DNA of 64,000 nt from positions 32,001 to 96,000 of the IMG/VR virus record IMGVR_UViG_3300042691_053485; one strand, 5' to 3'. The translations under genes and the position numbers were made by a program. The notes below the pieces were generated by a model. The model had not been told where the DNA came from. It did not search any database and saw only the letters and a program-made list of their open reading frames with translations. Of this stretch, positions 9,257 to 61,686 are shown piece by piece. The stretch's first letter is position 1; every line of letters begins with the position of its first letter. The DNA is from a virus.

Positions 9257-9826
9257 ATGAAGAAGTTTATAAAAAGTCAATTAATCTCCCTTAACGAGCA
9301 ATATAATAGTAATATCAATGTTAATTTTTGGAGATGGTTTGGTGACAGTAAAATTGTTGATAATTCCGCCAACCCGCAAATTGTATATCATCGCTCGAAT
9401 AGCGATTTTTCATCATTTGACCCCAAAAAACTTGGTAGTGCAACTGATAAAGGAATCCGAGGAATGGGCTACTATTTTAGTACAAGTGAAATAGCCAATC
9501 GGGGCTATGGAAGCAACTTATATGAAGTTTATCTTAAAATCGAAAACCCTTTCGATTTGTTACGCTTTGATTCTATGGAAGAACTTGCTGAATATCTTGA
9601 GGTTAGTCCTTCAATCTTTATTGATGATAAGGAAAGATTTGGTGGCAGGTCTGTTAAAGTTTATTCGGGATTTGAGGGACTTTTAAGTGATAGCGTAAGT
9701 GATAAAGGTTACGATGGAATCATACATGGGACAACGCATGAAATCGTGGCATTTTATCCCAATCAAATAAAATCAATTCATAACGATGGGACTTGGGATT
9801 GGGGGGACAATAATATTTATTCTTAA
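9257..9826 (+). CDS. ADP-ribosyltransferase-like protein (ART-PolyVal type) with an xxE leader
   Basis: WFGDSKIVD...VYH, GYYFS, EVYLKIENP, GYDGII, EIVAFYPNQIKS; leader MKKFIKSQLISLNE; TATTTATT at 9229-9236. Confidence 0.75.
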   Translation: MKKFIKSQLISLNEQYNSNINVNFWRWFGDSKIVDNSANPQIVYHRSNSDFSSFDPKKLGSATDKGIRGMGYYFSTSEIANRGYGSNLYEVYLKIENPFDLLRFDSMEELAEYLEVSPSIFIDDKERFGGRSVKVYSGFEGLLSDSVSDKGYDGIIHGTTHEIVAFYPNQIKSIHNDGTWDWGDNNIYS

Positions 9827-9935
9827 AGGCGGTTAAAGAATATTTGAACAGAGTGTAACATTTCTAAACATTGGTATATTAATTGCCACATGGTGTATAA
9901 GTTTTTCGGATTATAGCAGATAAAATAAGCAGAAA

Positions 9936-11186
9936 ATGCAATACAAGTCATTAAAGATAAGATTAGAGCCTACAAGGTTGCAGGGGCAGATGTTTGCAAA
10001 ACATGCAGGCACAGCTCGTCATGCCTACAATCAGGCTTTGAGCTATTGCAATGACTTATTCAAAGATGGGAAATCAATCCCTTCCGCCATCACACTTCAC
10101 AAATGGCTTGTAGCAACGGTGAAAAAGGAGTACTCTTGGTATTATGAGGTGTCAAAATGTGCCCCACAACAAGCACTTAGAAATCTCGAAACGGCATACA
10201 AGAACTTTCACCGCCTGCAAAAGCAATCCGGATACAAGCTTCTTCACTATAAAATTGTAAATGGAGTCAAAGTATCCACAGGTCTACAAGGATTACCAAG
10301 ATACAAGAAGAAAGGAAGAGGCGATTCATTCTATTTAGAAGGAACTGCAAAATACCCCATAAAAATTGAAAGAAACAAGGTTAAACTACCAAAAATAGGA
10401 TGGGTAAAACTATCCGAAACTTTGGATGTTGAATCAATAAAAAACTGTACGATAAGCAGGACTGCTGACCACTGGTTCATCTCATTCAGAGTCGAACACA
10501 TTCCAGCTATCACAAAAAAGAAAGAACTTGTCGTTGGTGTTGACTTGGGTGTAAAAACCTTGGCAACACTCAGTAATGGAGAAATATTCAAAAATGAAAA
10601 GCCTTATAGAAAGGCAAAAGAAAAACTCAGAAGGCAACAAAAAGAGGTGAGCAGAAGATTTGTTAGGAGTGCTGAAAACCAAAGCAACAACTACAAAAAA
10701 TCTGTTCAAAAGCTTGCAAAAATACATGCAAGGGTTGCAAATGTAAGAAAGGACTGTCTTCACAAACTGACGACCTATCTGACCAAGAACTTTGAAGTGG
10801 TGGTGATAGAGGATTTGAAGGTGAAGAACATGGTGAAAAACAAAAAGCTTGCATCAGCAATCCTTGACGGTGGATTTTTTGAGTTCAAAAGGCAACTTCT
10901 CTACAAAAAAGCATGGTATGGAGGAGAAGTCATTTTGGCGGACACCTTTTTTGCCAGCAGCAAGTTGTGTTCGAACTGCGGCAACAAGAAACCAAGTTTG
11001 AAACTTTCCGAGAGAAAATATGCTTGCAATTCCTGCCACCTCGAAATTGATAGGGATTTGAATGCGAGCATCAATCTGAAAAATTTGGCGGTGAGTTCCA
11101 CCGTGTCAGCCCTTGGAGATGGGAGTTCGGTGCTTTTCAGCACCCAGCCTGTCGATGAATTGGGAACAAAAATTGCACATGTTTAA
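9936..11186 (+). CDS. tnpB: TnpB RNA-guided endonuclease
   Basis: RuvC motifs VGVDLG, VIEDL, DRDLNA intact; CxxC..CxxC zinc finger; N-terminal HAGTARHAYN. Confidence 0.93.
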   Translation: MQYKSLKIRLEPTRLQGQMFAKHAGTARHAYNQALSYCNDLFKDGKSIPSAITLHKWLVATVKKEYSWYYEVSKCAPQQALRNLETAYKNFHRLQKQSGYKLLHYKIVNGVKVSTGLQGLPRYKKKGRGDSFYLEGTAKYPIKIERNKVKLPKIGWVKLSETLDVESIKNCTISRTADHWFISFRVEHIPAITKKKELVVGVDLGVKTLATLSNGEIFKNEKPYRKAKEKLRRQQKEVSRRFVRSAENQSNNYKKSVQKLAKIHARVANVRKDCLHKLTTYLTKNFEVVVIEDLKVKNMVKNKKLASAILDGGFFEFKRQLLYKKAWYGGEVILADTFFASSKLCSNCGNKKPSLKLSERKYACNSCHLEIDRDLNASINLKNLAVSSTVSALGDGSSVLFSTQPVDELGTKIAHV

Positions 11187-11265: not shown

Positions 11266-11273
11266 TATTTATA
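11266..11273 (+). promoter_or_regulatory. Putative late promoter TATTTATA heading LRR cluster 1
   Basis: 10 nt before ATG 11284; ORFs follow closely spaced to 16454. Confidence 0.55.
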
Positions 11274-11283: not shown

Positions 11284-11856
11284 ATGAAAGTTTTAATATC
11301 TGAAGAATTTGCAAAAAACTATATGTTTTTTCAAAATATCCAAACCATACACAATCTTACAGGAAAGATGTTATCTGCTAACGAAAAAGAAGTAGATGAA
11401 CTCCTTATGAAACATAATTGGGCTATTGACCATATTGCAACCTCAGCGGATGATGTCCAAGAGGTTGCAAATTTTATTTTAGGTGAATTAGAAGAATCAT
11501 TCGAAGCTTTGAAATCTCATAAGAAATTTAAAAACATCGTTGGAGAGTCTTATAAATTTCAAATTAAGGAGGCTGAATATCAAGGAAAAAAAGTGCAATT
11601 AAATAAGCCGTTTAGGCAAGCATATAGCGGAAAGAAATTTGCAGTTTATGTCAAAACCCCAAAGGGTAACGTTAAAAAGGTGAGATTTGGTGCACAGGGT
11701 TATAAGGTTAGAAACGATAACAAAGGAGCTGCAAAAAGCTTTAAGAAACGTCATAAGTGTGACCAAAAAACAGATAAAACTACTCCGGGATATTGGAGTT
11801 GTAATATTGCAAGATACAGAAAAGCATTGGGGCTTTCCTCTGCATCTCAATGGTAA
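11284..11856 (+). CDS. Hypothetical protein with an ISE leader and a basic C-terminal domain common in T4-like phages
   Basis: MKVLISEE; KKFAVYVK.PKGNVKKVRFG...SFKKRHKC...PGYWSC. Confidence 0.6.
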   Translation: MKVLISEEFAKNYMFFQNIQTIHNLTGKMLSANEKEVDELLMKHNWAIDHIATSADDVQEVANFILGELEESFEALKSHKKFKNIVGESYKFQIKEAEYQGKKVQLNKPFRQAYSGKKFAVYVKTPKGNVKKVRFGAQGYKVRNDNKGAAKSFKKRHKCDQKTDKTTPGYWSCNIARYRKALGLSSASQW

Positions 11857-11871: not shown

Positions 11872-12864
11872 ATGAATATAAAAAAGTTAAACGAAACATT
11901 CGACCGAATGAGCAAATCAGGCTTGTTCGGGAAACAAAGACCAATTCTATCCGAGAATTGGAGTCAAGAAGACATCCAAAAAATGAAGCAAATGCTTGCT
12001 TCAGGGGATATGGATAATATTAAGCTCGTTGAGCAGATGACTTCACCTCATCTTTTCAGAGATTTGGTGGATAGTGTTTATGGGGAGTTATTATCCTTTG
12101 CAAATAAAAAAGGCAGAGATGCTGGAGACATAACTTGGCTTTTTAGTAGGGGGGTATTGTATGCAAACAATACGCAACTAAGTACTGTTCCTGAAAACAT
12201 TGGAATTCTGAGTGGATTAGTGACATTGTTTTTGGAAGACAACAACCTGAGCAGCCTTCCGGAATCCATCGGCAACTTACATAATTTGGAAAGGTTAAAT
12301 TTGGGTAACAACAACCTGAGCAGCCTTCCGGAATCCATCGGCAACTTGCAGAATTTGCAACGGTTGGATTTATTCGGTAATAATCTGAGCAGCCTGCCGG
12401 AATCCATCGGCAACTTACATAATTTGGAAAGGTTAAATTTGGGTAACAACAACCTGAGCAGCCTTCCGGAATCCATTGGCAACTTGCAGAATTTGCAAGA
12501 GTTGGATTTGTCTAACAACAAGCTGAGTAACCTTACTAAAGGCTTCGAAAAATTGACAAAATTGACAAAACTCGGTTTAGCTCACAATAACCTCATTATA
12601 TTACCTGAAAGTATCAATAATTTAAGCCTATTAGAGATGTTAGATTTAACAGGAAATGGATTGCACACTCTTTCCGAAAGTATAGGAAATTTGAGTCAAT
12701 TAACAAATTTGAGTTTACGTAATAATAATCTGGAAACTCTCCCTCATAGCATCAGTAGCTTGAGTAGATTGAAGCGTTTATCGTTAGGGAGGAACAAATT
12801 TTCAAATACTGAAATTGAACGTATACAAACAATGCTTCCAAACTGTGGAATTTTTAATTTTTAA
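11872..12864 (+). CDS. LRR protein 1 (leader type A)
   Basis: 23-aa LPESIGNL repeats, LASGDMDNIKLV N-cap, LPNC C-cap; 138-bp internal duplication. Confidence 0.92.
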   Translation: MNIKKLNETFDRMSKSGLFGKQRPILSENWSQEDIQKMKQMLASGDMDNIKLVEQMTSPHLFRDLVDSVYGELLSFANKKGRDAGDITWLFSRGVLYANNTQLSTVPENIGILSGLVTLFLEDNNLSSLPESIGNLHNLERLNLGNNNLSSLPESIGNLQNLQRLDLFGNNLSSLPESIGNLHNLERLNLGNNNLSSLPESIGNLQNLQELDLSNNKLSNLTKGFEKLTKLTKLGLAHNNLIILPESINNLSLLEMLDLTGNGLHTLSESIGNLSQLTNLSLRNNNLETLPHSISSLSRLKRLSLGRNKFSNTEIERIQTMLPNCGIFNF

Positions 12865-12871: not shown

Positions 12872-13876
12872 ATGGATATAAAAAAAGTAAACGAAACATT
12901 CGACCGAATGAGCAAATCAGGCTTGTTCGGGAAAATACAAGAGGAGGTGTTTGATATAAAATCAAAGCTCACAAGCCTTCTAAAATCCGGAACACCGGAT
13001 AACATTGAACTTGCCATCATGGTAGCACAGGGTCAAGAGTTTGATATTGATGACTTGGTAGAAGAGCTTTTTGACTTGCAGTTTTGGATGGATAATCTTG
13101 ATGGTATTCCCCGGACAAGCAAGGTGGAAGCACTCCGTTTTTTGCTGTCAAAAACTATCATAAACCTTTACAGCAAAGGATTGTCGGAACTTTCTGAATC
13201 CATCGGCAACTTGCAGCATTTGCAAGAGTTGTATTTGTATAACAACAACCTGAGCAGCCTTCCGGAATCCATCGGCAACTTGCAGAATTTGAAAGTGTTG
13301 AATTTGGGTGAGAACAAGCTGAACAGCCTTCCGGAATCCATCGGCAACTTGCAGCATTTGCAAAGGTTGGGTTTGTATAACAACAACCTGAGCAATTTGC
13401 CGGAATCCATCGGCAACTTGCAGAATTTGCAAAGGTTAGGTTTGGGTAACAACAACCTGAGCAGCCTTCTGGAATCCTTCGGCAACTTGCAGAATTCGGA
13501 AACGTTGTCTTTGGCTAACAACAACCTGAGCAGCCTTCCTGAATCCATCGGCAACTTGCAGAATTTGCAAGAGTTGTATTTGTATAACAACAACCTGAGC
13601 AGCCTTCCGGAATCCATCGGCAACTTGCAGAATTTGAAAGGGTTGTATTTGCGTGGCAACAACCTGAGCAGCCTTCCGGAATCCATCGGTAACTTGCAAA
13701 ATTTGATAAGATTGGATTTATTTGATAACAACTTGAGCAGCTTGCCTGAATCTATCGGCAACTTGCAGAATTTGCAAGGGTTGAATTTGGGTAACAATAA
13801 TTTTCCTGAAGCTGAAAAGGAACGCATACAAAGAATGCTCCCAAACTGTAAAATATCTTTTAAACGAATACCATAA
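12872..13876 (+). CDS. LRR protein 2 (leader A plus body B), 9 canonical repeats
   Basis: Start reassigned to ATG 12872 by similarity to paralog starts; LKSGTPDNIELA; ends EKERIQRMLPNCKISF. Confidence 0.93.
   Translation: MDIKKVNETFDRMSKSGLFGKIQEEVFDIKSKLTSLLKSGTPDNIELAIMVAQGQEFDIDDLVEELFDLQFWMDNLDGIPRTSKVEALRFLLSKTIINLYSKGLSELSESIGNLQHLQELYLYNNNLSSLPESIGNLQNLKVLNLGENKLNSLPESIGNLQHLQRLGLYNNNLSNLPESIGNLQNLQRLGLGNNNLSSLLESFGNLQNSETLSLANNNLSSLPESIGNLQNLQELYLYNNNLSSLPESIGNLQNLKGLYLRGNNLSSLPESIGNLQNLIRLDLFDNNLSSLPESIGNLQNLQGLNLGNNNFPEAEKERIQRMLPNCKISFKRIP
13190..13800 (+). repeat. Tandem 69-bp LRR-coding repeats, GC-richer than the flanks
   Basis: Framework AACAACCTGAGCAGCCTTCCGGAATCCATCGGCAACTTGCAGAATTTG plus a variable block. 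Confidence 0.95.
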
Positions 13877-13878: not shown

Positions 13879-14766
13879 ATGAAAAACCCAAGACTTATCA
13901 TAACCGAAAAACAGGCAAAATTCGCCAAAAAAAACCTTTTTGAGGATGATAACCCCGAAGAAGTTCAAAAACTTCGTGAGATGTTATTCAGTGGTTCAAA
14001 GGAAACTATTAAAATTGCCCTTGAAGTTTCAGCTTCTTTGGGATATGATATTTCTTTGGATGTGTTCCCTGAATATATAGAACTTCAAAAGTTTTTCGTA
14101 ACACAAAAACCCGCAGGATTAGAGGATTCTTTCTATTCTATCCCAAATATAAAAAACTCACAAGCTCTTTCGGATTGGATTTTATCAATGTCCCAACGAC
14201 AATCTGCATATTTTGCAAATGTTAATAGTAATAATCTTCCACAGGGTGTTGCTATACTAGCGTCTTTGGTTGACTTAACATTGTCTGGCACATTTAGAGT
14301 CTTACCACCTGAATTAGGGAGTTTGCAGAATCTGCAAAGAATACATATTCGAAAGGGGATGTCGTTATCTGACATAAGTATCGTTTCACAACTTCAGAAT
14401 TTGCAGACCTTTGTTTGCAGTAACACTCGGACTTCAGACATAACACCCTTTTATAACACAAATATCAGAACGTTAAAGGTTGCAGATTCAAGAGTGAGTA
14501 AGACCGTGGTTATAAAAAATATGCCAAATTTACAAAGTTTACAATTAAACGGTAATATTGGTCTTAGGAATTTAGTTATTGAATCTGCCCCTAACCTAAT
14601 TGATATTTTCATCGAGGATTGCGACTTAGATGTACTTCCTGAAATATCTCACCTTCCAAACCTCCAACAAATTAATATACCTATTACAAGTCGAACTAAA
14701 CCACAAATTGCGGCTTATGTAGAAAAGAATAAAAACGTAAATGTTGTTATAAATCGATGGGCGTAA
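13879..14766 (+). CDS. LRR protein 3 (divergent repeats, ITE leader)
   Basis: MKNPRLIITEKQ; LFSGSKETIKIA; LPPELGSLQNL, LSDISIVSQLQNL. Confidence 0.85.
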   Translation: MKNPRLIITEKQAKFAKKNLFEDDNPEEVQKLREMLFSGSKETIKIALEVSASLGYDISLDVFPEYIELQKFFVTQKPAGLEDSFYSIPNIKNSQALSDWILSMSQRQSAYFANVNSNNLPQGVAILASLVDLTLSGTFRVLPPELGSLQNLQRIHIRKGMSLSDISIVSQLQNLQTFVCSNTRTSDITPFYNTNIRTLKVADSRVSKTVVIKNMPNLQSLQLNGNIGLRNLVIESAPNLIDIFIEDCDLDVLPEISHLPNLQQINIPITSRTKPQIAAYVEKNKNVNVVINRWA

Positions 14767-14768
14767 AA

Positions 14769-15632
14769 ATGGATATAAATAACCTTAACGAAATAATGAA
14801 GAAGCGTTTGGATGAAGGCTTCTTTGGGAACATACAAGAGGAAGATGAGTTTGATATAAAATCAAAGCTCACAGGTCTTCTAAAATCCGGAACACCGGAT
14901 AATATTGAACTTGCCATCATGATAGCACAGGGTCAGGAGTTTGATATTAATGACTTGGTAGAAGAGCTTTTTGATTTGAATTTTTGGATAGATAATCTCA
15001 AACGCATTCCCCAGACAAGCAAGTCCGAAGCTCTCAGTTTTTTGCTTGCACAAACTGCGATTGACCTTTCCAACAAAGGATTGCCAGCACTTCCTGAATC
15101 CATCGGCAACTTGCAGAATTTGGAATGGTTGAATTTAGATGGAAACAACTTGAGCAGTCTACCCGAATCCATTGGCAATTTGCATAATTTGAAATGGTTG
15201 GGTTTGAATGAGAATGACCTGCACAGACTTCCTGAATCCATCGGCAACTTACAGAATTTGGAATGGTTGGGTTTGTCTAACAGCAACCTGAGTAACCTGC
15301 CTGAATCAATCAGCAACTTGCAGAATTTAAAAAAGTTGTGGTTGGCTGGCAACAACTTGAATAGCCTGCCTGAAAGCATTGGAAATTTGCAGAATTTGGA
15401 AATGTTGGATTTAGGCCGCAATAACCTGAATAGCCTACCTGAAAGCATTGGAAATTTGCAGAATTTGGAAAAGTTGTGGTTGGAATCTAACAATTTAAGA
15501 AGTGTTCCTGAATCATTATACCTATTAAGGGGGTTGAACCGTTTAAACACAAGTGAAAACCCATTGCCTGAAGAAATTCAAGCCTCAATAAAGAAATTTT
15601 GCATTTACACCTCAATTGCACACGACCTATAG
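14769..15632 (+). CDS. LRR protein 4 (leader type B)
   Basis: MDINNLNEIMKKRLDEG; LKSGTPDNIELA; six canonical repeats, Trp-rich variable face. Confidence 0.93.
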   Translation: MDINNLNEIMKKRLDEGFFGNIQEEDEFDIKSKLTGLLKSGTPDNIELAIMIAQGQEFDINDLVEELFDLNFWIDNLKRIPQTSKSEALSFLLAQTAIDLSNKGLPALPESIGNLQNLEWLNLDGNNLSSLPESIGNLHNLKWLGLNENDLHRLPESIGNLQNLEWLGLSNSNLSNLPESISNLQNLKKLWLAGNNLNSLPESIGNLQNLEMLDLGRNNLNSLPESIGNLQNLEKLWLESNNLRSVPESLYLLRGLNRLNTSENPLPEEIQASIKKFCIYTSIAHDL

Positions 15633-16454
15633 ATGAAAACCTTTATAAGAAAAATATTAAGAGAACAAAGTGAACTTCCATTGGATTCTAAGTTTCAAAA
15701 GTGGTTTAATGGAAGTAAAATAACCACTGAATCAGGAACTCCTATGATATGTTATCATGGTACAAATGACCCTAACATAAAAGTTTTTGATTTGTCAAAA
15801 ATTGGGGCACATTCAGGCAATTATGGACATTATGGATATGGATTTTACTTTTCGGAAGATAAAGGGGAGGCAATGACTTATGGGAATGTAGTTTACGAAT
15901 GTTTCATAAGAATTATCAATCCATTCATTGGAAGTAAAGAGCAAATCATTGAACTTAAAAACGCAGGAGTCAGCGGAATCGATGATTTGGAGATTTTGTC
16001 AATAGATTTTCAAAGTTTCAAAAATTCACTAAGAGTAATTCCAATTTTATACAGTTTTGTTGAAGCATTCCAAAAGGAGGGTATGGAGGCAGCATGGGAT
16101 ATGTATCACCAATCCCAACATGATAATTTAGCTGACAAAGTGCAGATGGTTTCGGATATCCTTGAATTTACAACGTTTAATAAAAATGTTGATGGAGTTC
16201 CACAATATATTTTAGATAACATAGAGGCACTAGGAATTTCCCCTAAACTTAATAAGGGGCTGTCCTATGACCATCCATTACACTTTATAACAGATTTGGG
16301 TAGTAGAAGCAAAGAAATTACGGAGGTTATAAAGAAATTAGGGTATGACGGTGTCCATTATGGTTCAGAAATTGTTCCATTTTACCCCAACCAAATAAAG
16401 TCAATTCATAATGATGGGACTTGGAACTTACATGACAATAATATTTATTCTTAG
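15633..16454 (+). CDS. Second ART-PolyVal-like protein, with an internal insertion and an LRE leader
   Basis: WFNGSKI...CYHGT, GYGFYFS, LGYDGV, EIVPFYPNQIKSIHNDGTW...NNIYS, same ending as 9257..9826. Confidence 0.75.
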   Translation: MKTFIRKILREQSELPLDSKFQKWFNGSKITTESGTPMICYHGTNDPNIKVFDLSKIGAHSGNYGHYGYGFYFSEDKGEAMTYGNVVYECFIRIINPFIGSKEQIIELKNAGVSGIDDLEILSIDFQSFKNSLRVIPILYSFVEAFQKEGMEAAWDMYHQSQHDNLADKVQMVSDILEFTTFNKNVDGVPQYILDNIEALGISPKLNKGLSYDHPLHFITDLGSRSKEITEVIKKLGYDGVHYGSEIVPFYPNQIKSIHNDGTWNLHDNNIYS

Positions 16455-16574: not shown

Positions 16575-18008
16575 ATGTACTGGCGCACCTATTTTGATAA
16601 AGATACAGTTATAATAAAAGATTCAACCGTTAATCTAGGTAAGAATCCCGTTACCGAACTCTTTTATGGTGGGACTTATGAAGCCCCGACTTATTCAAGA
16701 TATCTTTTCCACTTTCCAATTGAAAAGCTCAGGGAGTTGTATTCAGATTGCCAACTTGGAGACTTATCAAGAGTAAATCATACATTAGTGCTTAAACCAA
16801 CCCGATATTTCGGGTCTATTGACAAGACAACTGAATGTCTTGCAACAGCCTATGATTTGTGCTTATTTCGCACAAGGCAGGAGTGGTTGGAGGGATGTGG
16901 CTATGATTTTGAATGTAATGAAGGTTGCAATGGTTATGTTAGCCCGAATTGCAATACGTCTTTTGGGGAAGCAAACTGGTTTTACGCAAAACCTGATGAA
17001 AGATGGGAGATTGATGGAGTCTATGATGCTTTTTCCGCAGAAACAATGATAATTACTGGGGATACATATTTTTCCGGCGAACCAATATATTTGGCTTGTA
17101 AAGCTGAGGCATGCGATGACTGCCTATTTAAACTTGACATGACGGAACTTGTTAACCAATTAATAACCGGAGATACACCAAATTATGGTTTTGGACTGGC
17201 ATTTAACAATAGTTATGAATTAAATCCCAAAGGAGTTACCAAATACTTAGGATTTTACAGTTCTCAAACCACAAACTTTTTTAAGCCTTTCATTGAAACT
17301 ACATATTTCAATCCAATTTTGGATGACAGGCATGAATTTTATACCGAAAAGGAAAATTGGCTTTACCTCTATGTAAATGTTAAGGGTGAGCCAACAAATT
17401 TGGATGAAAATCCTATCGTTACGATTTATGATGAGTTTGATACAGTTTATACCACTGTCACAGGCGAATGTGTAACAAAAGGAGTTTATGGAATTTCATT
17501 GGAAGTTTCTCCAACCGGAGAAACTTCTGAATGTGCAGTTTGGAGAGATGTTTGGTCAAATATCAAAATAAATGGTAGAGTATTAAAAGATGCTGAACAG
17601 GAATTTCAAGTGAAATCTAGTGATTCATACTATCAAATCGGAACCCAAACTTATTCACCTAAAGAATTCGGGTTTAGATATCGTGGAGTAAAAAGAGAGG
17701 AAAAAATCAGAAGGGGTGATATTCGAAAGGTTGTAGTTGAAGTGTTTGAGGCATATAAACACAACAAAAAAGTTGTTATTGATAATCTGTATTATAGATT
17801 ATACGTGAAAGAGGGTAGTGAGCAGCTTGATGTAATTCCTTGGACACCTGTTAATATAGGTGCTTGCGAAAATTACATCTACCTTTATAGCGAATGGTTG
17901 ATACCACAGATATATTACATCGATTTTAAAGCAGTATCAAATCAAGAGGAAAGAACATATCCTAACGAAATTAAATTTATCATATTAGACGACAACGCAG
18001 TATGTTAA
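16575..18008 (+). CDS. Cys-rich putative virion structural protein
   Basis: TATTTATA at 16557-16564; beta-rich; W..ANW...W...G pattern seen in large-phage structural proteins. Confidence 0.55.
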   Translation: MYWRTYFDKDTVIIKDSTVNLGKNPVTELFYGGTYEAPTYSRYLFHFPIEKLRELYSDCQLGDLSRVNHTLVLKPTRYFGSIDKTTECLATAYDLCLFRTRQEWLEGCGYDFECNEGCNGYVSPNCNTSFGEANWFYAKPDERWEIDGVYDAFSAETMIITGDTYFSGEPIYLACKAEACDDCLFKLDMTELVNQLITGDTPNYGFGLAFNNSYELNPKGVTKYLGFYSSQTTNFFKPFIETTYFNPILDDRHEFYTEKENWLYLYVNVKGEPTNLDENPIVTIYDEFDTVYTTVTGECVTKGVYGISLEVSPTGETSECAVWRDVWSNIKINGRVLKDAEQEFQVKSSDSYYQIGTQTYSPKEFGFRYRGVKREEKIRRGDIRKVVVEVFEAYKHNKKVVIDNLYYRLYVKEGSEQLDVIPWTPVNIGACENYIYLYSEWLIPQIYYIDFKAVSNQEERTYPNEIKFIILDDNAVC

Positions 18009-18904
18009 AGAAGCTTATTGTGTCAGAATCCATTTTTGACAAATTACAGTACCGCCAAGGAGATTTTAAATTTTCATCTGAAATTCAGGAGATTTCTAAC
18101 GAAATCAAAGAGTTTCTTTTGGAGGTTTCAAAATCTCCTGAACTATTTGAAAAACTTCGTAAGAATGGATGTGTCCACATAGGAAAAGAATTTATCGCCA
18201 TCAGATTTAATTTTGATAACTGCATTCTTTTAGATTCTTTTGATGGGGAATTTCTTTTGGGATTTTCAACTTCTTTGGGGGCTAAAACCCACCAAGGCAG
18301 AAAAGGATTCTTTTATCACAATCCAACTACTGAATCATGCCACATCAATCTTGTTATCAACCATCAATTTTCCAACGAAGAATTGATAAGTGAGTTAGCA
18401 GCAATATTTGATATGCGGAGGAAGACTTTCGCCCACGAATTCGCCCACTATTTAGACCACAATAAAAGTAGTGGTAAATTTGCTCAAGGATATGATGACA
18501 ATATAAAAAATCCGGAATATTCGAAACAGCAAGCTGAAGTAAATGCAATCTTCAAACAAGTTACATCTGAATTTTACAGCGATTTCAAAAGTGAATATGA
18601 ATCTCATTTGAAGTCTTGGAATGAGAATTCTAATAGCATCATCCAAGATATGATTGACATTGATGATGTAGAGGAAGGATTGAGTGAGCAACAATATTTT
18701 GACTTATATTTGACAGAGTTGTGGGTGCATAGTTCTGTCTGCAATATTGATTATCATTTAAACTTGATTTTAGACGATATTATTGTAAAGACGGGCGAAT
18801 TGTCACCGAGTCAGAAAAAACATCTCACAGGCAGAATCTATGTCTTCCTGAACAACATAAATGACCAGTTCGGAATCAATTGTAAATTGAAGATGAAATA
18901 TTAG
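18002..18904 (+). CDS. Zincin-like metallopeptidase with a VSE leader
   Basis: TFAHEFAHYLD plus downstream EVNA; paralog at 46352. Confidence 0.6.
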   Translation: MLKKLIVSESIFDKLQYRQGDFKFSSEIQEISNEIKEFLLEVSKSPELFEKLRKNGCVHIGKEFIAIRFNFDNCILLDSFDGEFLLGFSTSLGAKTHQGRKGFFYHNPTTESCHINLVINHQFSNEELISELAAIFDMRRKTFAHEFAHYLDHNKSSGKFAQGYDDNIKNPEYSKQQAEVNAIFKQVTSEFYSDFKSEYESHLKSWNENSNSIIQDMIDIDDVEEGLSEQQYFDLYLTELWVHSSVCNIDYHLNLILDDIIVKTGELSPSQKKHLTGRIYVFLNNINDQFGINCKLKMKY

Positions 18905-19389
18905 CCAATAAAGTCCAATAAATATTCTTTATCAGGATTATCATTTAGGACGCAGATAAATCCTAAATCACTATATTTTGTTGTGAAATCAGGCTCATGA
19001 GTTAGCTTACTGTGCATTTTGGGGATTTCCAAATCGTTTTGCATTCTGCCTTTGCCTGCATAAAAATGACCGTAGGTGTAAACAATTGCCTTCATAATCT
19101 TATATCCAAGACCTAAACCTTGCAAGCTGTTCGCAATATTAATATGTAATTGGTACAGAGTGTCCGCAATTACTTGGATGGAAACCGCAAGACCACTTTG
19201 GATGTTTACTCCACTAGGCAGGGGGGGGGTATCGATTGACAGCTGAATTGGAGACTCTTCATTTACTTGGTCAATAATTAGGTCTTCCCAAGAAATATTC
19301 CTAAGAAATTCTCTATCTTCATTAGAAATTTGAACTTCTTTTGAAATCGCTATTGCTTCATTTAGTAATTTTCGGATTATTGCCTTCAT
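18901..19389 (-). CDS. GNAT-like protein with an LNE leader
   Basis: Start reassigned to MKAIIRKLLNE (promoter motif at 19395-19402); acetyl-CoA motif LHINIANSLQGLGLGYKIM. Confidence 0.55.
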   Translation of the reverse strand: MKAIIRKLLNEAIAISKEVQISNEDREFLRNISWEDLIIDQVNEESPIQLSIDTPPLPSGVNIQSGLAVSIQVIADTLYQLHINIANSLQGLGLGYKIMKAIVYTYGHFYAGKGRMQNDLEIPKMHSKLTHEPDFTTKYSDLGFICVLNDNPDKEYLLDFIG

Positions 19390-19402
19390 TTTAATATAAA
19401 TA

Positions 19403-22824: not shown

Positions 22825-22842
22825 AAGGTTTTCCTATAAATA

Positions 22843-24409: not shown

Positions 24410-24415
24410 TTTTTT

Positions 24416-28458: not shown

Positions 28459-28459
28459 A

Positions 28460-40976: not shown

Positions 40977-41718
40977 TGTTTAAAATTATTTAAATCGCTT
41001 CTGATTTGTTTTTCTTCACAAAATTCAAATAGACGGTTTATCGTTTCTTGAGTTAAGGGGTTTCCCTTTATGAAAAGCCACTCAAGTGTTGATAGTTTGA
41101 AGAGTGATTCCGGCACGGATGTTAGCTTATTATTTTCAAAATCTAATGGGTTAAATTTTCCATTAAGTGAATATTTTCTGGAATTGACGTTAACTTATTT
41201 CTACCTAATCCCAATTGCTGTAAAGATTTTAATTTAACAATTGAAGTAGGTAGAGATACAATATCATTAGATTCTAATAATAGTGACTTTAAATCGTTTA
41301 AGTCGCCAATTGATTCCGGCAGTTTAGAAATTGCATTAGCACGCAAATCAATACTATTCAAGTGTGGTAAATATCCAATACTATTTGGGATTTTAGATAT
41401 TCCCTTGTCCGCAAGGTCTATTGTTTTAAATCCTTTTAGCTTATAAAGAATATCAGTGGTAGTTTTTGCAGTTATGTCATACATGAAAAAATGTTTTATC
41501 CAGAATTTTAATTCCCAGACTTCAGAAAATAGTGTGTCAAAATCAAAACCAAGTCCTTGGGCGACAGATTTTGCAAGTTCAATATTGTCCGGTGTTCCGG
41601 ATTTTAGAAGGCTAGTGAGCTTTGATTTTATATCAAACTCTTCCTCCTCTTGTATGTTCCAAAAGAAGCCCTCATCCAAACGCTTCTTCATTATTTTATT
41701 TATTTTGCTTATGTCCAT
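40961..41718 (-). pseudogene. LRR protein 8 (leader B), broken by a 1-nt frameshift near 41145
   Basis: ORF stops at ...NLTH*; adding one T restores HLDFENNKLTSVPESLFKLSTLEWLFIKGNPL...WSKI* ending at 40961. Confidence 0.8.
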
Positions 41719-41733: not shown

Positions 41734-42519
41734 TTAAAATTCCACTTCACAATTTGGAAGCATAACCTTCAACCTCTTTATTACATTTGTGGGTATCGTA
41801 TTGCCGGACAAATACAACCCTTTCAAATTCTGCAAGTTGACGATAGATTCCGGAAGGCTGCTCAGGTTGTTGTTATACAAGCGCAACCATTCCAAATTCT
41901 GCAAGTTGCCGATGGACTCAGGAAGGCTGCTCAGGTTGTTGTCTTCCAAATACAACTCTTGCAAATTCTGCAAGTTGCCGATGGATTCCGGAAGGCTGCT
42001 CAGGTTGTTGTTAGTCAAGCGCAACGCTTGCAAATTCTGCAAGTTGCCGATGGATTCAGGAAGGCTGCTCAGCTTGTTGTTACCCAAATTCAACCCTTGC
42101 AAATTCTGCAAGTTGCCGATGGGTTCTGGAAGACTGCTCAGGCTGTTGTTATACAAGCGCAACACTTGCAAATTCTGCAAGTTGCCGATGGATTCAGAAA
42201 GTTCCGACAATCCTTTGCTGTAAAGGTTTATGCTAGTTTTTGACAGCAAAAAACGGAGTGCTTCCACCTTGCTTGTCCGGGGAATACCATCAAGATTATC
42301 CATCCAAAACTGCAAGTCAAAAAGCTCATTTAGCAAAGCATCAATGTCAAACTCCTGACCCTGTGCTACCATGATGGCAAGTTCAATATTATCAGGTATT
42401 CCGGATTTTAGAAGGCTGGTGAGCTTTGATTTTATATCAAACTCCTCCTCTTGTATATTCCCAAAGAAGCCTTCATTTAAACGCTTCTTCATTATTTTAT
42501 TTATTTTGCTTATGTCCAT
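41734..42519 (-). CDS. LRR protein 9 (leader B; body nearly identical to LRR2)
   Basis: Six canonical repeats; ends LSGNTIPTNVIKRLKVMLPNCEVEF. Confidence 0.93.
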   Translation of the reverse strand: MDISKINKIMKKRLNEGFFGNIQEEEFDIKSKLTSLLKSGIPDNIELAIMVAQGQEFDIDALLNELFDLQFWMDNLDGIPRTSKVEALRFLLSKTSINLYSKGLSELSESIGNLQNLQVLRLYNNSLSSLPEPIGNLQNLQGLNLGNNKLSSLPESIGNLQNLQALRLTNNNLSSLPESIGNLQNLQELYLEDNNLSSLPESIGNLQNLEWLRLYNNNLSSLPESIVNLQNLKGLYLSGNTIPTNVIKRLKVMLPNCEVEF

Positions 42520-42534: not shown

Positions 42535-43323
42535 TTAAAATTCCACTTCACAATTTGGAAGTATAGCCTTCAACCTCTTTATTACATTTGTTGGTATCGT
42601 ATTGCCGGACAAATTCAACTCTTCCAAATTCTGCAAGTTGCCGATGGATTCCGGAAGGTTGCTCAGCTTGTTGTTACCCAAATTCAACAATTCCAAATTC
42701 TGCAAGTTGACGATGGATTCAGGAAGGCTGCTCAATAGGTTATTAAACAAATACAACCCTTGCAAATTCTGCAAGTTGCCAATGGATTCAGGCAGGCTGC
42801 TCAGCTTGTTGCCACTCAAATCCAACTCTTTCAAATTCTGCAAGTTACCGATAGATTCCGGAAGATGGCTTAGGCTATTGTGATTCAAATTCACAGATTT
42901 CAAATTCTGCAAGTTTCCAATCGATTCAGGCAGGCTGCTCAGGTTGTTGTTATCCAAATACAACACTTTCAGCTTCTGCAAGTTGCCGATAGATTCAGGC
43001 AGTGCTGACAATCCTTTGCGGGAAAGGTCTATGATAGCTCTTGACAACAAAAAACGGAGAGCTTCAGATTTGCTTGTTTGGGGAATGTTATCAAGATTTT
43101 TCATCCAAAACTTCAAGTTATAAATCTCTTCTGCCAAGGCATCAATATCAAAATCTTGCCCTTGAGCTATCATGAACGCAAGCTCAATGTTATCAGGTGT
43201 TCCGGATTTTAGAAGGCTGGTGAGTTTTGACTTTATATCAAACTCATCTTCCTCTTGTATGTTCCCAAAGAAGCCTTCATTCAAACGCTTCTTCATTATT
43301 TCGTTAAGTTTATTTAAATTCAT
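42535..43323 (-). CDS. LRR protein 10 (leader B; body like LRR4, C-cap like LRR9)
   Basis: IPQTSKSEAL shared with LRR4; LSGNTIPTNVIKRLK..LPNCEVEF shared with LRR9. Confidence 0.93.
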   Translation of the reverse strand: MNLNKLNEIMKKRLNEGFFGNIQEEDEFDIKSKLTSLLKSGTPDNIELAFMIAQGQDFDIDALAEEIYNLKFWMKNLDNIPQTSKSEALRFLLSRAIIDLSRKGLSALPESIGNLQKLKVLYLDNNNLSSLPESIGNLQNLKSVNLNHNSLSHLPESIGNLQNLKELDLSGNKLSSLPESIGNLQNLQGLYLFNNLLSSLPESIVNLQNLELLNLGNNKLSNLPESIGNLQNLEELNLSGNTIPTNVIKRLKAILPNCEVEF

Positions 43324-45314: not shown

Positions 45315-45474
45315 GATTGCCAAATAATGCCGTACAGGAAACTTAATTAATTCGCCTAAGTTTAAAAACTAGCAATGTAACTGCCTTTTTAGATTACTAT
45401 TATAAATATATTACTTTGCACAACGATTACACCAATTTTCAACTATTTATATAAACATATTCAATACAATAATT

Positions 45475-45993
45475 ATGAGCAAGATTTTAAAAATTTCCGA
45501 AGAAATGGGTAATAAACTAATGAAAGAGATTATCGATGCCGATGGCTCAATCATTAATGGTGATAAGAACGACAGCGACACCGAAATTCGGACAAATTAT
45601 TATAAGAAAAGTGGAAGACCACAAACTTCTGATGATTTCGCAAAAGAGGCAGGGCAAGATAGCAAATGGTACTATTATCATCGTGGGTATTCCTATGGTG
45701 TTGCAGAGAGTGAGATAAAGGAAGAGGAAATTATCAGTGGTAAGAATGATACAGATATTTTGAATAAAGATATAACTGTTATACCAAACCTTAAAGAACT
45801 TACTAAAAGCTATCAAAAGCCCGATTTGGAGGCGATTGTGAAGAAAATGATAAATCTTGTGAATAGTTTTGCTTCAGATGATATTGAAGGGCAAGATATA
45901 CAGGCAATTGTTTTAAAGGAGATAATTAAGAAATTGCCGTTAAATGGGTTGAGACCCGAACAGAAGCGCGAGCTAAAATCGTTATTCAAATAA
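45475..45993 (+). CDS. Hypothetical protein with an ISE leader
   Basis: MSKILKISEE; TATTTATA at 45444-45451. Confidence 0.6.
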   Translation: MSKILKISEEMGNKLMKEIIDADGSIINGDKNDSDTEIRTNYYKKSGRPQTSDDFAKEAGQDSKWYYYHRGYSYGVAESEIKEEEIISGKNDTDILNKDITVIPNLKELTKSYQKPDLEAIVKKMINLVNSFASDDIEGQDIQAIVLKEIIKKLPLNGLRPEQKRELKSLFK

Positions 45994-46355
45994 TGGAATT
46001 TTTTATCAGACAAAAAGCCACAATGCCTAAACTAGAGCTTGAATTGGTAGAGGACGGTTTTGGCAAAAACTCCAACTATGAGGAGAAAATACAAAATGCA
46101 GTCGTCACATTTTCTATGGAAAATGTTGAAAACTGCCAAAGGGTGATTATTTGCCGTCCGATGGATGTAATTGAAGACGATTGCGGTTCACCTTGTGGTA
46201 ATTGTAATCGAAAATTCAAGTTGGTTTATCCTTGGAGGGAACGTGACACAAAAAATGCAGGTAGGTTCATTGGTAAGGTCGAGATAGACTTTTTAGATGG
46301 CTGTGGTAAACTGATTGTACCAATCAAAGAAGATTTATTTATCAATATTATATGA
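45993..46355 (+). CDS. BppU N-terminal-like baseplate/structural domain
   Basis: FFIRQKAT.P.L, VTFSM, Y.W...DT..AGRF.G...IDF..G.GKLIVPI. Confidence 0.6.
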   Translation: MEFFIRQKATMPKLELELVEDGFGKNSNYEEKIQNAVVTFSMENVENCQRVIICRPMDVIEDDCGSPCGNCNRKFKLVYPWRERDTKNAGRFIGKVEIDFLDGCGKLIVPIKEDLFINII

Positions 46356-47344
46356 TTCAAAAGAAGTTTTTAATTTCTGAGGAAATGTCCAAAAGAATTT
46401 TTGAAGGTTCTTTGGATTTTCAGAAACAGCGAATTGCAACAAATGTTTACCATGAGATTCTCGATTTCCTTATAGAGGTCAATCAAACAATTGATATGTC
46501 AAAAGATGGGACATCTCATGAGATAGTATTTCGATTGGATTCATACAATGGGTTTGTGCTTAGTTTAGACTTTGTTTTAAGTAACAGTAGTGCAAACGGC
46601 TCATTTACCCCACCTGATACTATCACACTTTATTTAAAACCATTAGCAGAAACTGAAACATCGACATATCGTTATCGAACTCTTCATAACTTATTTTCAA
46701 ATTCTGATATAAGGTCAACTTTTATCCATGAGTTTACACACCTTATGGATGAAACACGTGCCAATAATAAAATTTTTGACTTGGGGTATCTAAAATTTTA
46801 TAGAAGTTTAGAACAACTAGCTGAAGAATCTGAAACGGCTTATGAAGGATTCTATGTAGAATATTTAGATTTATTAAAACAGGTTGAGAGAATTTATAAA
46901 AAATATAAAAAGGGTGGGAGGATTAAAAGTAATATTTATCTTCCAATGGTGGAAAAACCGAATCGTGAGGATTATGAAGATGAGGAAGAATTTAACTATG
47001 TTAGAGAAAGATATATTGACTCATTTAAAATCTACCTTTTTCATAATGCAGAAGTAAATGCTAGATTTCATTCGGTTGTCAATGAGATTATTTTTAGTTT
47101 AATTTCAGGCTTAAACGATTACAAAAAGAGAGGTGATAGTGAGGAATTAGAATTATGGGCGGAGTTTTTTGTCCATAAAGACTTGAAGTCAGTAATGTCT
47201 GATTTTAAATCTAAAATCAGACGTAAATTTAATAATCTTCTTCCAAGTCCCGAAATCATGAAAAAGCTTTATGGCCGATTCTATGTTATTCTGAGTAAAT
47301 TATCAAAGGCGTATAAAGATTCAGGAGTTGAACTTTTCAAATAA
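46352..47344 (+). CDS. Zincin-like metallopeptidase with an ISE leader
   Basis: TFIHEFTHLMD plus EVNA. Confidence 0.6.
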   Translation: MIQKKFLISEEMSKRIFEGSLDFQKQRIATNVYHEILDFLIEVNQTIDMSKDGTSHEIVFRLDSYNGFVLSLDFVLSNSSANGSFTPPDTITLYLKPLAETETSTYRYRTLHNLFSNSDIRSTFIHEFTHLMDETRANNKIFDLGYLKFYRSLEQLAEESETAYEGFYVEYLDLLKQVERIYKKYKKGGRIKSNIYLPMVEKPNREDYEDEEEFNYVRERYIDSFKIYLFHNAEVNARFHSVVNEIIFSLISGLNDYKKRGDSEELELWAEFFVHKDLKSVMSDFKSKIRRKFNNLLPSPEIMKKLYGRFYVILSKLSKAYKDSGVELFK

Positions 47345-53025: not shown

Positions 53026-53046
53026 AGTCGTTTTTGCATAAATATC

Positions 53047-60300: not shown

Positions 60301-60595
60301 AAGAATGTTACTTTATGCACAACGCTTAATCGAAGATGTAGGATTGCCATTATTGTTTGACCAAAATGATGAAACAGTTCGCCGTAAATTCGAAAGTAAA
60401 GTTAATCCGATTTTGGCTAACATTAGAAATGAGAGAGGTATTTTCGCATTCGAAGTCCAACTCGACCGTTCAAATGAATCATTCAATTCAAATGAAATGA
60501 AGGGTAAAATTGGATTGCAACCGATAAGAACTCTTGAGTATATCAACATAGAATTCGTGCTAACTCCGGCTGGAGCTTCTTTCTCTGAAATTTAA
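57365..60595 (+). CDS. Contractile tail sheath protein (gp18-like) with a Thr-rich insertion
   Basis: PAIKFTETD, GEFPKGRAFTP, GGFDGWD, WFAGAGFERG, TLYEGRVNPI, GNKTLQ..SALNRINVRR. Confidence 0.95.
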   Translation: MAVNKPNLAPAIKFTETDNTFTTRNFGVTSLGIAGEFPKGRAFTPIAIDTTTLLKQVFGDSNPCKFEGTQQPIYEGVYIAKQFLKESDQLFVSRILGLTGYDAGDAWGISFGAALDPATVATTATQTFSASITYVNGQAGSVTFSNTILQDLYDAGEITDAMLGGVSLTTGETVAVGNKFIGNCEYFVGARFTMDVTARTEQFICITGETSITDTYEVITETQDCIVIYSGGTVTYDSTFVITITNPIVLQNEGNNELTIIPSGVLTIIGGTITHTTDGLTVVNGTIYLPNGDIITGGEYKICDLEGNTAVYDCDTIDGINFTITTGTTLIPTTVTSGVTQQVVSQIPSGLVQLDFTGTVIELSGVPYAQYDNMVVALLRSYAQYNGDEILNFNVFGNQIQIESIDGGVIKPLDDFIIKGTDSSNNSFEYNVSLDKSKSNFIGRVFGNFIPCCKSNLPLYLEELWTSMFDYLYSNELIYCIKPSVCYINTLKDYKEPYQGAMTPWLVSELRGNRVFRLFRFHTFSDGNAANQDVKISITNIRPDAKTFDVQVRAFNDTDKKPVILESFARVTLREQDNNFIGRRIGTVDGNHVLQSKYIMVELAAECLDESFPAGFEGYPVRDYDCMLPPTIVYKTQYNITDRVRQVYLGLNDTLGYDIDMFEYKGKPNDPDLNFWTGTTKGFHLDSSAASVQIDGVGTVEFETGPAAFKNENDLVGTQYEQIIARKFTLMPFGGFDGWDIHRKTRTNTDLYAISGTLGQKGLTSGAFDVYSSENINNGQAVINSDFYAYLEGIKSLSNRLEFRINLLAVPNVNTAENSNLVEETIEMCEQERCDTFYVPTTLDTDVAGQVLRVQDVVGAIDGLFDSSYAGTYFPWGQFLDEVNNVYVWLPPTAEVMRTFALTDKVRRPWFAGAGFERGVTEFKQARKKLTQNEMDTLYEGRVNPISTFKQADGTSPVVIFGNKTLQIADSALNRINVRRMLLYAQRLIEDVGLPLLFDQNDETVRRKFESKVNPILANIRNERGIFAFEVQLDRSNESFNSNEMKGKIGLQPIRTLEYINIEFVLTPAGASFSEI

Positions 60596-61686
60596 TGAAA
60601 CAATTTATAATTGAACAATTACGGTCTATTGAGAAAAATCAAATGAATGAAGATTCTTTTGATTTTTCTCAGGTCGACCAATGGATAGATAGTATGCCCA
60701 AAAGCGAGTTGAATAAGACTCGTAAAGAATTTGCATCTCTTGTAAGTAGTAAATTCGAAGGAGGGTTCAGAAAATATCTCCAAGCGAAGTTGATGAAATC
60801 TAATAAATATGTAGAGGTCATTAAGCTCGTTATCAATTATATGCAAAATAAATCCAAGGAAAATTATAATGCCATCTTTGAATTGATTGGTATTCCAATG
60901 CTTGACTATTTTGTACAAAAAACATTCGGAAAGGATAGTTTTCTTGGGAGAATTAAGCAGATAACACCATTCCTTAAAAAGGTTTCAACAGGTAACGGGA
61001 AATTGGATATGGCAATTTATAATGCCATGGCAGAGGCACTAGAATTGAAAACTGTCAGAGATACATTCGAAAGAGATATGAAGAATGTATTGGATGATAA
61101 AATGGATTCTCTTGAAACTGACCAAGCATTTTGGGACTTTTTTGAGCCAACTCAACAACCGCAACTACCTTCAGGTGATACCAATGAATCGATAAATGAG
61201 GTTTTTGGGATTAATACTGCAATAAAACAAGGAATATCTAATCGACTTGATAGATTGAAAGCGGTCTTTAGTAGCCGAGAAACTAAGAATAAGTTCAAAA
61301 TTTTGGATAGTATTACCAAGTTTATGCCAAACATAAAAACCGACTTGAAAAGAAAGATAAAGGAGCGGTTATTTGACTTAAACTACGATGATATTTCAGA
61401 CATGGTTGAACGCCTCAATGTATCAAAAGCCGCAAAAATTGTGACTCTTCCAGTTATGCAAAATATCATCAAGAATTCTCAGGAATTATACTTTGGAGAA
61501 CCTTCTTTTAATGATTTTATTGATATCGTAAAGGGCGTATTCACAGATAAAGTGGTGTTAGCATCAGTTCAAAAGGGAATTGAAAACTTCCTAAGAGAAA
61601 TGGTTAAAAAGGCGAGAGAAGAACAGCAGAAAAAGGGAGGCTTTAAAACTTCAAAATCAAAATCTTACGACTATGATAGATTGTAG
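60595..61686 (+). CDS. Hypothetical helical protein with xxE-type leader sites
   Basis: MKQFIIEQ...MNED; internal INE. Confidence 0.6.
   Translation: MKQFIIEQLRSIEKNQMNEDSFDFSQVDQWIDSMPKSELNKTRKEFASLVSSKFEGGFRKYLQAKLMKSNKYVEVIKLVINYMQNKSKENYNAIFELIGIPMLDYFVQKTFGKDSFLGRIKQITPFLKKVSTGNGKLDMAIYNAMAEALELKTVRDTFERDMKNVLDDKMDSLETDQAFWDFFEPTQQPQLPSGDTNESINEVFGINTAIKQGISNRLDRLKAVFSSRETKNKFKILDSITKFMPNIKTDLKRKIKERLFDLNYDDISDMVERLNVSKAAKIVTLPVMQNIIKNSQELYFGEPSFNDFIDIVKGVFTDKVVLASVQKGIENFLREMVKKAREEQQKKGGFKTSKSKSYDYDRL

Follow-up and report, generated by a model that had tools for sequence, protein, structure and literature searches.

Putative T4-type capsid-targeting leaders on the accessory proteins of an uncultured phage

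The internal proteins of bacteriophage T4 carry capsid targeting propeptides of 10-19 residues that bind the scaffolding core and are removed by the protease gp21. The T4 targeting sequence can also bring foreign proteins into the head, and a review considers leader loading as a possibly general route for varied proteins in T4-like phages (PMC9026906, PMC3012670). Furthermore, the ADP-ribosyltransferase (ART) Alt, which T4 packages and injects, is shortened by six residues at ITE-6 (PMC5694885), and ART-PolyVal and zincin-like domains are part of the repertoire of polyvalent proteins, for which injection with the phage DNA has been predicted (PMC5512222). Here, we analyzed a window of 64,000 nucleotides (nt), bases 32001-96000 of the single 184,534-bp virus record IMGVR_UViG_3300042691_053485 (G+C content of 35%). 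In this window, 17 open reading frames (ORFs), and about 30 in the whole record, start with a leader, i.e. a basic and hydrophobic N-terminal stretch of 7-16 residues that ends with (I/L/V)-x-Glu. These leaders are reasonably likely to be T4-type capsid-targeting propeptides on injected effectors. A set of about 30 accessory proteins, unrelated apart from the leader, is thus probably loaded into the head and delivered to the host cell along with the DNA.

The closest parallel is provided by IPI, IPII and IPIII of T4 and by the polymorphic loci of T-even phages. As here, a short propeptide ending with hydrophobic-x-Glu is found on unrelated proteins in a phage that has a gp21/S77 protease and head genes of the gp22/gp23 type, and the leader is kept while the mature parts vary between relatives (PMC3012670, PMC9026906). 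The leader MKTFIRKILRE of our set resembles MKTYQEFIAE, which occurs twice in T4, where other N-termini are MELITE (Alt), MEGLIE (gp67), ..QLLIE (gp21), MLKEQLIAE (gp22) and MAKINELLRE (gp24). T4 Alt is processed by gp21 at ITE-6 and LTE-619. In contrast with the T4 internal proteins, the present set comprises about 30 tagged genes (three in T4), falls into three leader classes (one in T4) and is spread over several islands. The putative cargo (100-560 amino acids, aa; mostly acidic enzymes and leucine-rich repeat (LRR) proteins) lacks the small, basic and DNA-associated character of internal proteins and resembles enzymes of the Alt type. Leaders such as M..LIITE, MKVLISE and MRILVSE follow the pattern of the very short I-T-E propeptide of Alt, a late-expressed protein, and four ARTs carry a leader. 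However, the ARTs are ART-PolyVal (PF18760), which belongs to another clade than the R-S-E clade of Alt (PMC5512222), and have 190-570 aa versus 682 aa.

Polyvalent proteins (Iyer, Burroughs, Anand, de Souza and Aravind, 2017) also share ART-PolyVal, zincin-like motifs and GNAT with this set, and are likewise predicted to act as effectors that enter with the DNA when infection begins. Whereas they are fusions of 2-15 domains, the proteins studied here mostly have a single domain and one leader each. This is the case for all leader proteins of the window, and only the protein encoded at genome 7359-9083 looks polyvalent (coordinates marked "genome" are those of the whole record, the others those of the window). 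The route predicted here is a cleavable N-terminal tag rather than a fusion to MuF or to other virion domains. Finally, many head-internal proteins (ejection and inner-body proteins) of the giant phages phiKZ, 201phi2-1 and SPN3US have propeptides cut after Glu by gp21-related proteases, often with redundant sites (PMC5694885, PMC9026906), and the double sites found in homologues of the 18002 protein match this redundancy (PMC5694885). However, giant phage proteases use (S/A/G)-x-E and these phages lack a T4-type scaffold module, whereas I/L/V is found at -2 here, as in T4.

The nearest cultured phages, including Flavobacterium phage immuto and a Microcystis phage, have capsid proteins that are about 43-45% identical to that of this virus. 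Uncultured IMG/VR relatives with a 76-77% identical capsid protein exist, and two of them, G001 (125.6 kb) and G002 (37.9 kb), were examined in full. A family search for ART-PolyVal in G001 and G002 gave no match, but its control gave none either, which makes this negative uninformative. A megablast search of the first 20 kb against phage records was negative, as was a tblastn search with the ART as query in the same set (50,697 records); no related cultured phage with these genes was found.

Leader-bearing genes

An earlier sequence-only reading of the window had counted about 17 leader ORFs and quoted eleven of their N-termini. All eleven were retrieved where it had placed them, on the plus strand (9257, 11284, 13879, 15633, 18002, 45475 and 46352) or as starts of minus-strand ORFs (19389, 35941, 40976 and 43323). 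Independent gene calls also give 17 leader ORFs, the additional ones starting at 11872, 12872, 14757/14769, 41718 (-), 42519 (-) and 60595. They are the following (sites are numbered by their Glu; TATTTAT refers to the upstream motif described below):

9257..9826 (+), ADP-ribosyltransferase (ART-PolyVal), leader MKKFIKSQLISLNE (LNE-14); Pfam PF18760 2.6e-20; TATTTAT 9229-9235
11284..11856 (+), 190-aa protein with no assigned function, leader MKVLISE (ISE-7); phrog_7595; TATTTAT 11266-11272
11872..12864 (+), LRR protein, leader MNIKKLNE (LNE-8); Pfam LRR_14 1.4e-40
12872..13876 (+), LRR protein, leader MDIKKVNE (VNE-8); from paralogue family and N-terminus
13879..14766 (+), LRR protein, leader MKNPRLIITE (ITE-10); Pfam LRR_4 / LRR_14
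14757..15632 (+), LRR protein, leader MDINNLNE...KKRLDE with two sites; Pfam LRR_14 1.1e-34
15633..16454 (+), ADP-ribosyltransferase (ART-PolyVal), leader MKTFIRKILRE (LRE-11); Pfam PF18760 2.6e-17
18002..18904 (+), HExxH (zincin-like) protein, leader MLKKLIVSE (VSE-9); HExxH at 145
18901..19389 (-), 162-aa protein with no assigned function, leader MKAIIRKLLNE (LNE-11); TATTTAT 19396-19402
34928..35941 (-), serine hydrolase of beta-lactamase fold, leader MKFKSILSE (LSE-9); Pfam PF00144 1.4e-25; TATTTAT 35955-35961
40209..40976 (-), LRR protein, leader MVKNIKVIITE (ITE-11); Pfam LRR matches
41143..41718 (-), LRR protein, leader MDISKINKIMKKRLDE (LDE-16); Pfam LRR_14 1.5e-14
41734..42519 (-), LRR protein, leader MDISKINKIMKKRLNE (LNE-16); from paralogue family
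42535..43323 (-), LRR protein, leader MNLNKLNE..KKRLNE (LNE-8, LNE-16); Pfam LRR_14 3.1e-29
45475..45993 (+), 172-aa protein with no assigned function, leader MSKILKISE (ISE-9); TATTTAT 45444-45450
46352..47344 (+), HExxH (zincin-like) orphan, leader MIQKKFLISE (ISE-10); HExxH at 126; Pfam Zincin_1 only E=0.043
60595..61686 (+), 363-aa basic protein encoded between the tail sheath and tube genes, leader MKQFIIE..SIE; from N-terminus

The first ATG of the 12872 gene is at 12872, a TTG at 12815 being an unlikely start. The 14757 gene likely starts at the internal Met at 14769, as suggested by the identity of its 5' end with that of its paralogues at the DNA level. The 18901..19389 protein has no Pfam or PHROG match, and a homologue search with the 46352 protein found none. 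The protein encoded at 60595 is the least certain member of the set: it has no family match and no orthologue in G001 or G002.

Three classes of leaders were distinguished: (a) amphipathic leaders of about 11-14 residues (MKTFIRKILRE, MKAIIRKLLNE and MKKFIKSQLISLNE); (b) a short hydrophobic run followed by Ser/Thr-Glu (MKVLISE, MLKKLIVSE, M..LIITE and MKFKSILSE) and (c) the start of the LRR family, M-D/N-I-x-K-L/V-N-E, often followed by KKRLNE.

A loose motif, [ILV]xE with Glu at residues 6-14, is carried by 50 of 189 N-termini (26%) versus 16.6% of internal 14-residue windows. This enrichment is mild (1.6-fold) and, because the motif is common in a proteome rich in Lys, Ile, Leu and Glu, the loose count alone proves little. 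In a strict motif, the first acidic residue must be a Glu at position 6-14 and I/L/V must stand two residues before it; one K/R or more and no fewer than three hydrophobic residues are also required. This strict motif is carried by 24 of 189 N-termini versus 2.6% of internal windows (p = 2e-10). When residues 2-16 were permuted within each protein, 7.4 +/- 2.6 strict matches were obtained (maximum of 19 in 2000 shuffles; z = 6.3) and, once paralogues are collapsed, 21 matches are observed versus 6.4 +/- 2.4. Furthermore, only 1/101 N-termini match the strict motif in three more AT-rich phage loci used as controls. The genome-wide comparison with early-type genes, proposed by the sequence-only reading as a check, comes out in its favour: the strict motif is present in 3/44 N-termini of the replication-type block (151-181 kb), in 1/43 of the 96-149 kb block of tail, baseplate and replication genes, the single one being that of an ADP-ribosyltransferase, and in 1/14 of the glycan-enzyme block. 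As noted in the same reading, DNA polymerase (47373-51770) and helicase (53426-55231) have no leader.

Several motif-bearing starts were rejected. The motif is lost in orthologues of 19403 and 21035, whose motifs are therefore due to chance, as is that of 23609, also lost in orthologues. The motif of 25880, a conserved enzyme start in the glycan-enzyme block, was likewise read as chance, though it is kept in orthologues. At genome 28505, the orthologue has a His for the Glu, and the start at genome 28881, in the position of the small terminase, was rejected as not head-related.

Head genes and late-type motif

The head module has the gene order of T4 genes 20-67-68-21-22-23, i.e. portal, four small genes, protease, acidic scaffold and gp23-like capsid protein. 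The identified genes are:

3-1559, portal
4164..4934 (+), prohead maturation protease of the T4 gp21 type; Pfam Peptidase_S77 (PF03420) 1.9e-20, phrog_207 6e-32
4995..6161 (+), very acidic 388-aa scaffold-like protein in gp22 position; from synteny with T4 and list of sites
6186..8012 (+), major capsid protein of the gp23 family, 608 aa; Pfam Gp23 1.6e-70

The S77 protease is the presumed enzyme that would cut after the leader Glu. Its own N-terminus carries LMIE-17, which is LLIE in relatives and likewise LLIE in T4 gp21. The scaffold-like protein has ten [ILV]xE sites, including an N-terminal SLNE-20 that is kept as [ST]LNE in relatives. When the capsid protein is aligned with T4 gp23 and three relatives, a [LI]xE appears conserved just before TDSSSSG...MVRR: it is ALVE-73 here (codon 6402-6404), and ILNE or LILE in relatives. 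It aligns to the region where T4 gp23 is cut, i.e. after LTE-65. The maturation cut of the capsid protein is thus predicted after ALVE-73, and this lineage seems to keep the cutting rule of T4 on its own capsid and scaffold proteins.

Other features of the head genes deserve mention. Relative to T4 gp23, about 230 additional residues follow the conserved MVRR...VQAM block of the capsid protein; this insertion is Cys-rich and conserved in three relatives. Between the portal and the protease, a 231-aa protein (1583-2278) has nine [ILV]xE sites and is a candidate prohead core protein that would be degraded by the protease, like T4 gp67/gp68. In one relative (L010, 6678-8534), the ORF of the prohead protease has 618 aa versus the usual ~255, due to a fusion with downstream sequence or to a sequencing error. 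A Peptidase_S77 search in five viral records that carry ARTs gave one match (G006) and none in the records of 640-676 kb, a result that is uninformative for such divergent proteases.

The sequence-only reading had also placed several leaders directly behind a TATTTAT motif. This motif, ATATTTAT, of the form (A)TATTTAT(A), is located 13-31 nt 5' of start codons and, among leader genes, precedes 9257, 11284, 19389, 35941, 45475 and 46352 at this distance. It is also found 5' of terminase, core, protease (21 nt upstream), scaffold, sheath, tube and baseplate wedge genes. The same ATATTTAT thus precedes structural operons and those leader genes that come first in an operon, a placement that fits a late co-expression of leader and structural genes. 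Its copies are:

11266-11272, 1566, 4143, 4973, 9229, 16557, 45444, 46336, 57347 and 62144 (+), ATATTTAT motif
19396-19402, 22836-22842, 35955-35961 and 53038-53044 (-), ATATTTAT motif

A TATTTAT motif also precedes the gene of an 804-aa Lon-like ATP-dependent protease, outside the window (genome 15463-17877, -; phrog_4871 1.4e-216).

Conservation of the leaders and nature of the cargo

The leaders are conserved well beyond this virus. Among the 98 metagenome homologues found for the 15633 ART, an [ILVFM]xE leader is present in 88 of 93, with L (61), I (19) or F (8) as P3 residue, and three homologues have no leader at all. The catalytic domain starts at an invariant N-F-x-K-W-F-G, and the leader that precedes it has 10-37 residues and a widely variable sequence. 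The 18002 protein has eight homologues (25-33% identity), six of which have leaders, starting with M-x-I-I/L-I-N/S-E or MLK..I.E; a second site is located directly before a conserved R-x-x-D-V in five of these six. In G001 and G002, residues of the leaders change but the motif persists (MKVLISEE / MKIIITEE, MRILVSE / MKIKVNE, ..KISEEM / ..KITEEM). For instance, the orthologue of 11284 in G002 starts with MKIIITEE and that of 45475 in G001 with MRKKMKRLKITE. Furthermore, the C-terminal 120 aa of the 11284 protein recur at the end of a 479-aa G001 protein that starts with MDFESFIKEAINE; therefore, one cargo domain may be found behind different leaders. G001 has its own tagged set with other cargo (17/175, a count reached by no shuffle), and its leader starts include MKLLITEEQY, MRKIILTEEQY and MKKIIISESQY. 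Even in distant viral contigs that carry ARTs, neighboring proteins start like the tag of T4, e.g. MKNIKNFTEFINE and MKHLKLFEEYISE. The homologues of the serine hydrolase are cellular only (about 27% identical) and have signal peptides in place of MKFKSILSE; in the phage protein, the hydrolase domain begins at residue 23.

Structure prediction agrees with a separate leader. In the AlphaFold model of the 15633 ART, built from a 29-sequence alignment, the mean predicted local distance difference test score (pLDDT) is 89; it is below 50 for residues 1-16 and above 90 for the domain, from about residue 19. In this model, the leader is a short helix and a linker that are detached from the fold. Residues 1-15 of the 18002 model also have a pLDDT below 50.

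Behind the leaders, the protein bodies belong to about 19 unrelated families. When the proteins were compared all against all by BLAST after removal of their first 30 residues, only the 16 LRR genes and two ARTs (9257 and 15633) were joined, the other leader proteins being mutually unrelated. High DNA identity of the 5' ends, up to 94%, is limited to the LRR paralogues, and a recent copy-and-paste of leader DNA between unrelated genes was not seen at the DNA level. Since unrelated genes have no leader DNA in common, the peptide is under selection rather than recently copied. The mature parts have 104-558 aa, and 25 of 30 have a pI below 7, mostly 4.5-6.5.

The cargo that the sequence-only reading had listed was largely retrieved. 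Both ARTs of the window are supported by Pfam PF18760 matches, and all four ART-PolyVal proteins of the genome have a leader, two in the window and two outside. The serine hydrolase was also confirmed (Pfam PF00144, beta-lactamase fold). The count of eight LRR genes applies to those with a leader: the window has ten, and two of them (36009 and 36932) start differently and have none. For the two proposed zincins, the conserved HExxH...E motif is present but Pfam matches are faint (E = 0.04-0.1 for HExxH proteins against M78, Zincin_1 and M76, including M78 at only E=0.1 for the 18002 protein). In the alignment of the 18002 family, H145, E146, H149, D152 and E179 are invariant, and the four HExxH..D proteins of the genome all have a leader. 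A Foldseek search of the 18002 model against PDB gave no match at E <= 0.001; in a wide VIA-align search, the best Z was 5.7, on short helical stretches, and IrrE/PprI reached Z 4.9, within noise. Further leader proteins include one GP88-family protein and several proteins without recognisable family. The GNAT attributed to the cargo was not found inside the window. It lies outside, fused to one of the two other ARTs, in a 574-aa protein (genome 7359-9083, -) made of an N-terminal domain, a GNAT and an ART-PolyVal. The first 112 residues of this protein correspond to separate genes of 113-117 aa located beside the capsid gene in relatives (G001 32322-32675, G002 12449-12790), from which a domain fusion or fission in the cargo set can be deduced. 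Several ART-PolyVal homologues of 15633-16454 (P0026-P0033) bear the name 'arginyl-tRNA synthetase' in one source, apparently a mis-annotation.

The record also carries other elements. Three near-identical TnpB / IS605 OrfB genes (Pfam OrfB_IS605, Cas12f1-like TNB domain and HTH) are located at 9936-11186 (+), 38310-39560 (-) and genome 170132-171343; about 70 nt 5' of each copy are likewise conserved, and two of the three copies are within cargo islands. Between two cargo islands, a long block (23609-34895, -) harbors about a dozen enzyme-like genes, several being glycosyl- or methyl-transferase-like as judged by N-termini alone, without a family search; none has a convincing leader. The tail sheath and tail tube genes are at 57365-60595 and 62166-62660, and the gene immediately 5' of the sheath gene (56951-57319) encodes a 122-aa protein with a classical signal peptide (MKNLFLLIFFLLPLFTSAQ). 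Moreover, three proteins of 183-208 aa (3139-3702, genome 2906-3457 (-) and genome 118425-119051) have in common the N-terminal module M-A-G-x-K-P-N-x-F ... G-T-E-E-x-Y-T-Q-T, preceded by ATATTTAT in two of the three copies. In relatives (L010 14647-19576, L011 14523-19442), this module heads proteins of 634-890 aa, and it may represent a shared end through which fibre-like proteins attach to the virion.

Alternative explanations and biological meaning

If the leaders act as capsid-targeting propeptides, the tagged genes would be transcribed late, alongside the structural genes, and the N-terminal 7-16 residues would attach each protein to the scaffolding core while the prohead is being assembled. 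The S77 (gp21-type) protease would cut after the Glu while maturing the capsid protein and degrading the scaffold, and the proteins so released would stay beside the DNA inside the head until the following infection, when they would pass into the host cell. In that cell, ARTs, HExxH proteins, the serine hydrolase and LRR binders would be active ahead of all phage gene expression, in host take-over or counter-defence. The sequence shows the motif, its enrichment and conservation, the head module and the identity of the domains; from these we infer docking, cleavage, packaging, injection and cargo roles. The sequence-only reading had already proposed this capsid loading, and the sequence-level predictions of such a loading that could be tested came out as foreseen, while the details on GNAT and zincins given above did not hold as stated.

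Several observations weigh against capsid targeting. About five to seven strict matches are expected by chance, and the specificity of the motif is limited: a conserved LLIKE/LLIE N-terminus is found in the small gene located 5' of terminase, whose product is not expected in heads. Unlike the small basic internal proteins of T4, the mature proteins are mostly acidic, and about 30 cargo species is far above the handful of T4. In class (b), conservation continues past the Glu (E-E/K-Q-Y/F), a feature absent from T4 cleavage logos, and this stretch may be a small structural element. In addition, ATATTTAT could not be tied strictly to late genes, as the operon propagation rule used was too permissive and labelled 112 of 189 genes as late. 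Finally, the completeness of the record is estimated at 68%.

The conservation beyond the Glu in one leader class, the similar conserved N-terminus 5' of terminase and the only 1.6-fold enrichment of the loose motif would also suit an N-terminus that has nothing to do with the capsid, such as a beta-strand and helix involved in oligomerisation or membrane contact, or a Lys- and AT-rich start favoured for translation. However, composition-preserving shuffles give 7.4 matches versus 24 observed, more AT-rich loci have 1/101, and replication and tail genes of the same genome show no enrichment. Among leaders that differ greatly in length, what stays constant is the Glu with the hydrophobic residue at -2, and the ART model shows the leader apart from the fold; we consider such a structural or translational role rather unlikely. 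It is also conceivable that head cargo is restricted to proteins with MK-x-F-I...L-x-E and h-h-h-(S/T)-E leaders, the MDIxKLNE..KKRLNE of LRR proteins being simply the conserved N-terminal segment of that family. The LRR leaders are inherited by descent among 16 paralogues (up to 94% identity of the 5' DNA), the LRR orthologue of G001 has LND for the first LNE, and 36009 and 36932 start differently. Yet this family includes three leader types, among which the ITE type of unrelated proteins (13879, 40209, genome 182996, 10241), and the G001 orthologue keeps its second site as LSE. Moreover, an Asp at the cut position in T4 blocks processing but not targeting (PMC9026906). Such a restriction of the head cargo to a part of the set is, in our opinion, unlikely.

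The leader could otherwise be read by another enzyme, either as the substrate of a leader-dependent maturase or as a degron for the Lon-like protease of the phage, whose gene (genome 15463-17877) follows a copy of the same promoter motif. Two radical-SAM-like CxxxCxxC genes are indeed found just downstream of an ART homologue in a 211-kb viral contig (L024 11644-13387, -). In contrast, the record studied here, itself possibly incomplete, has no radical-SAM match or plausible CxxxCxxC enzyme, and the motif matches the S77 cutting rule and the sites of the capsid and scaffold proteins, leaving this explanation quite improbable. A mere artefact of N-termini rich in Lys, Ile, Leu and Glu would account for some matches: [ILV]xE occurs in 16.6% of any 14-residue window, and several matches are demonstrably due to chance (19403, 21035 and 23609). 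It would hardly account for a z of 6.3 against shuffles, for the replication of the pattern in G001 and for conservation in 88 of 93 homologues, and chance as the source of the whole pattern is very improbable.

Targeting to the capsid by leaders thus remains the reading that we favour. Its principle is already established for T4 and T-even phages, and the value of the present set lies in the size and content of its cargo, not in a new mechanism. The candidate immediate-early effectors are four ADP-ribosyltransferases, four HExxH proteins, a serine hydrolase and a large LRR family, directed at a host of the Bacteroidota type. If the leaders work as in T4, injected proteins, the first actors in host take-over and counter-defence, would be predictable in uncultured phages. 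Furthermore, as short natural tags, these leaders might be tried as a means to bring foreign cargo into capsids of this kind, a use already made of the T4 tag. A broader view can be proposed tentatively and is, at present, the less probable one: the leader would be a general and readable address label, the arsenal injected here would be unusually large and would represent a modular, one-tag-per-effector alternative to polyvalent fusions, and it would include the first head-delivered LRR binders. If true, this arsenal would combine a diversifying family of 16 LRR binders with single-domain ARTs, metallopeptidase-like proteins and a hydrolase, and the injected proteome of uncultured T4-like phages could be listed from sequence alone.

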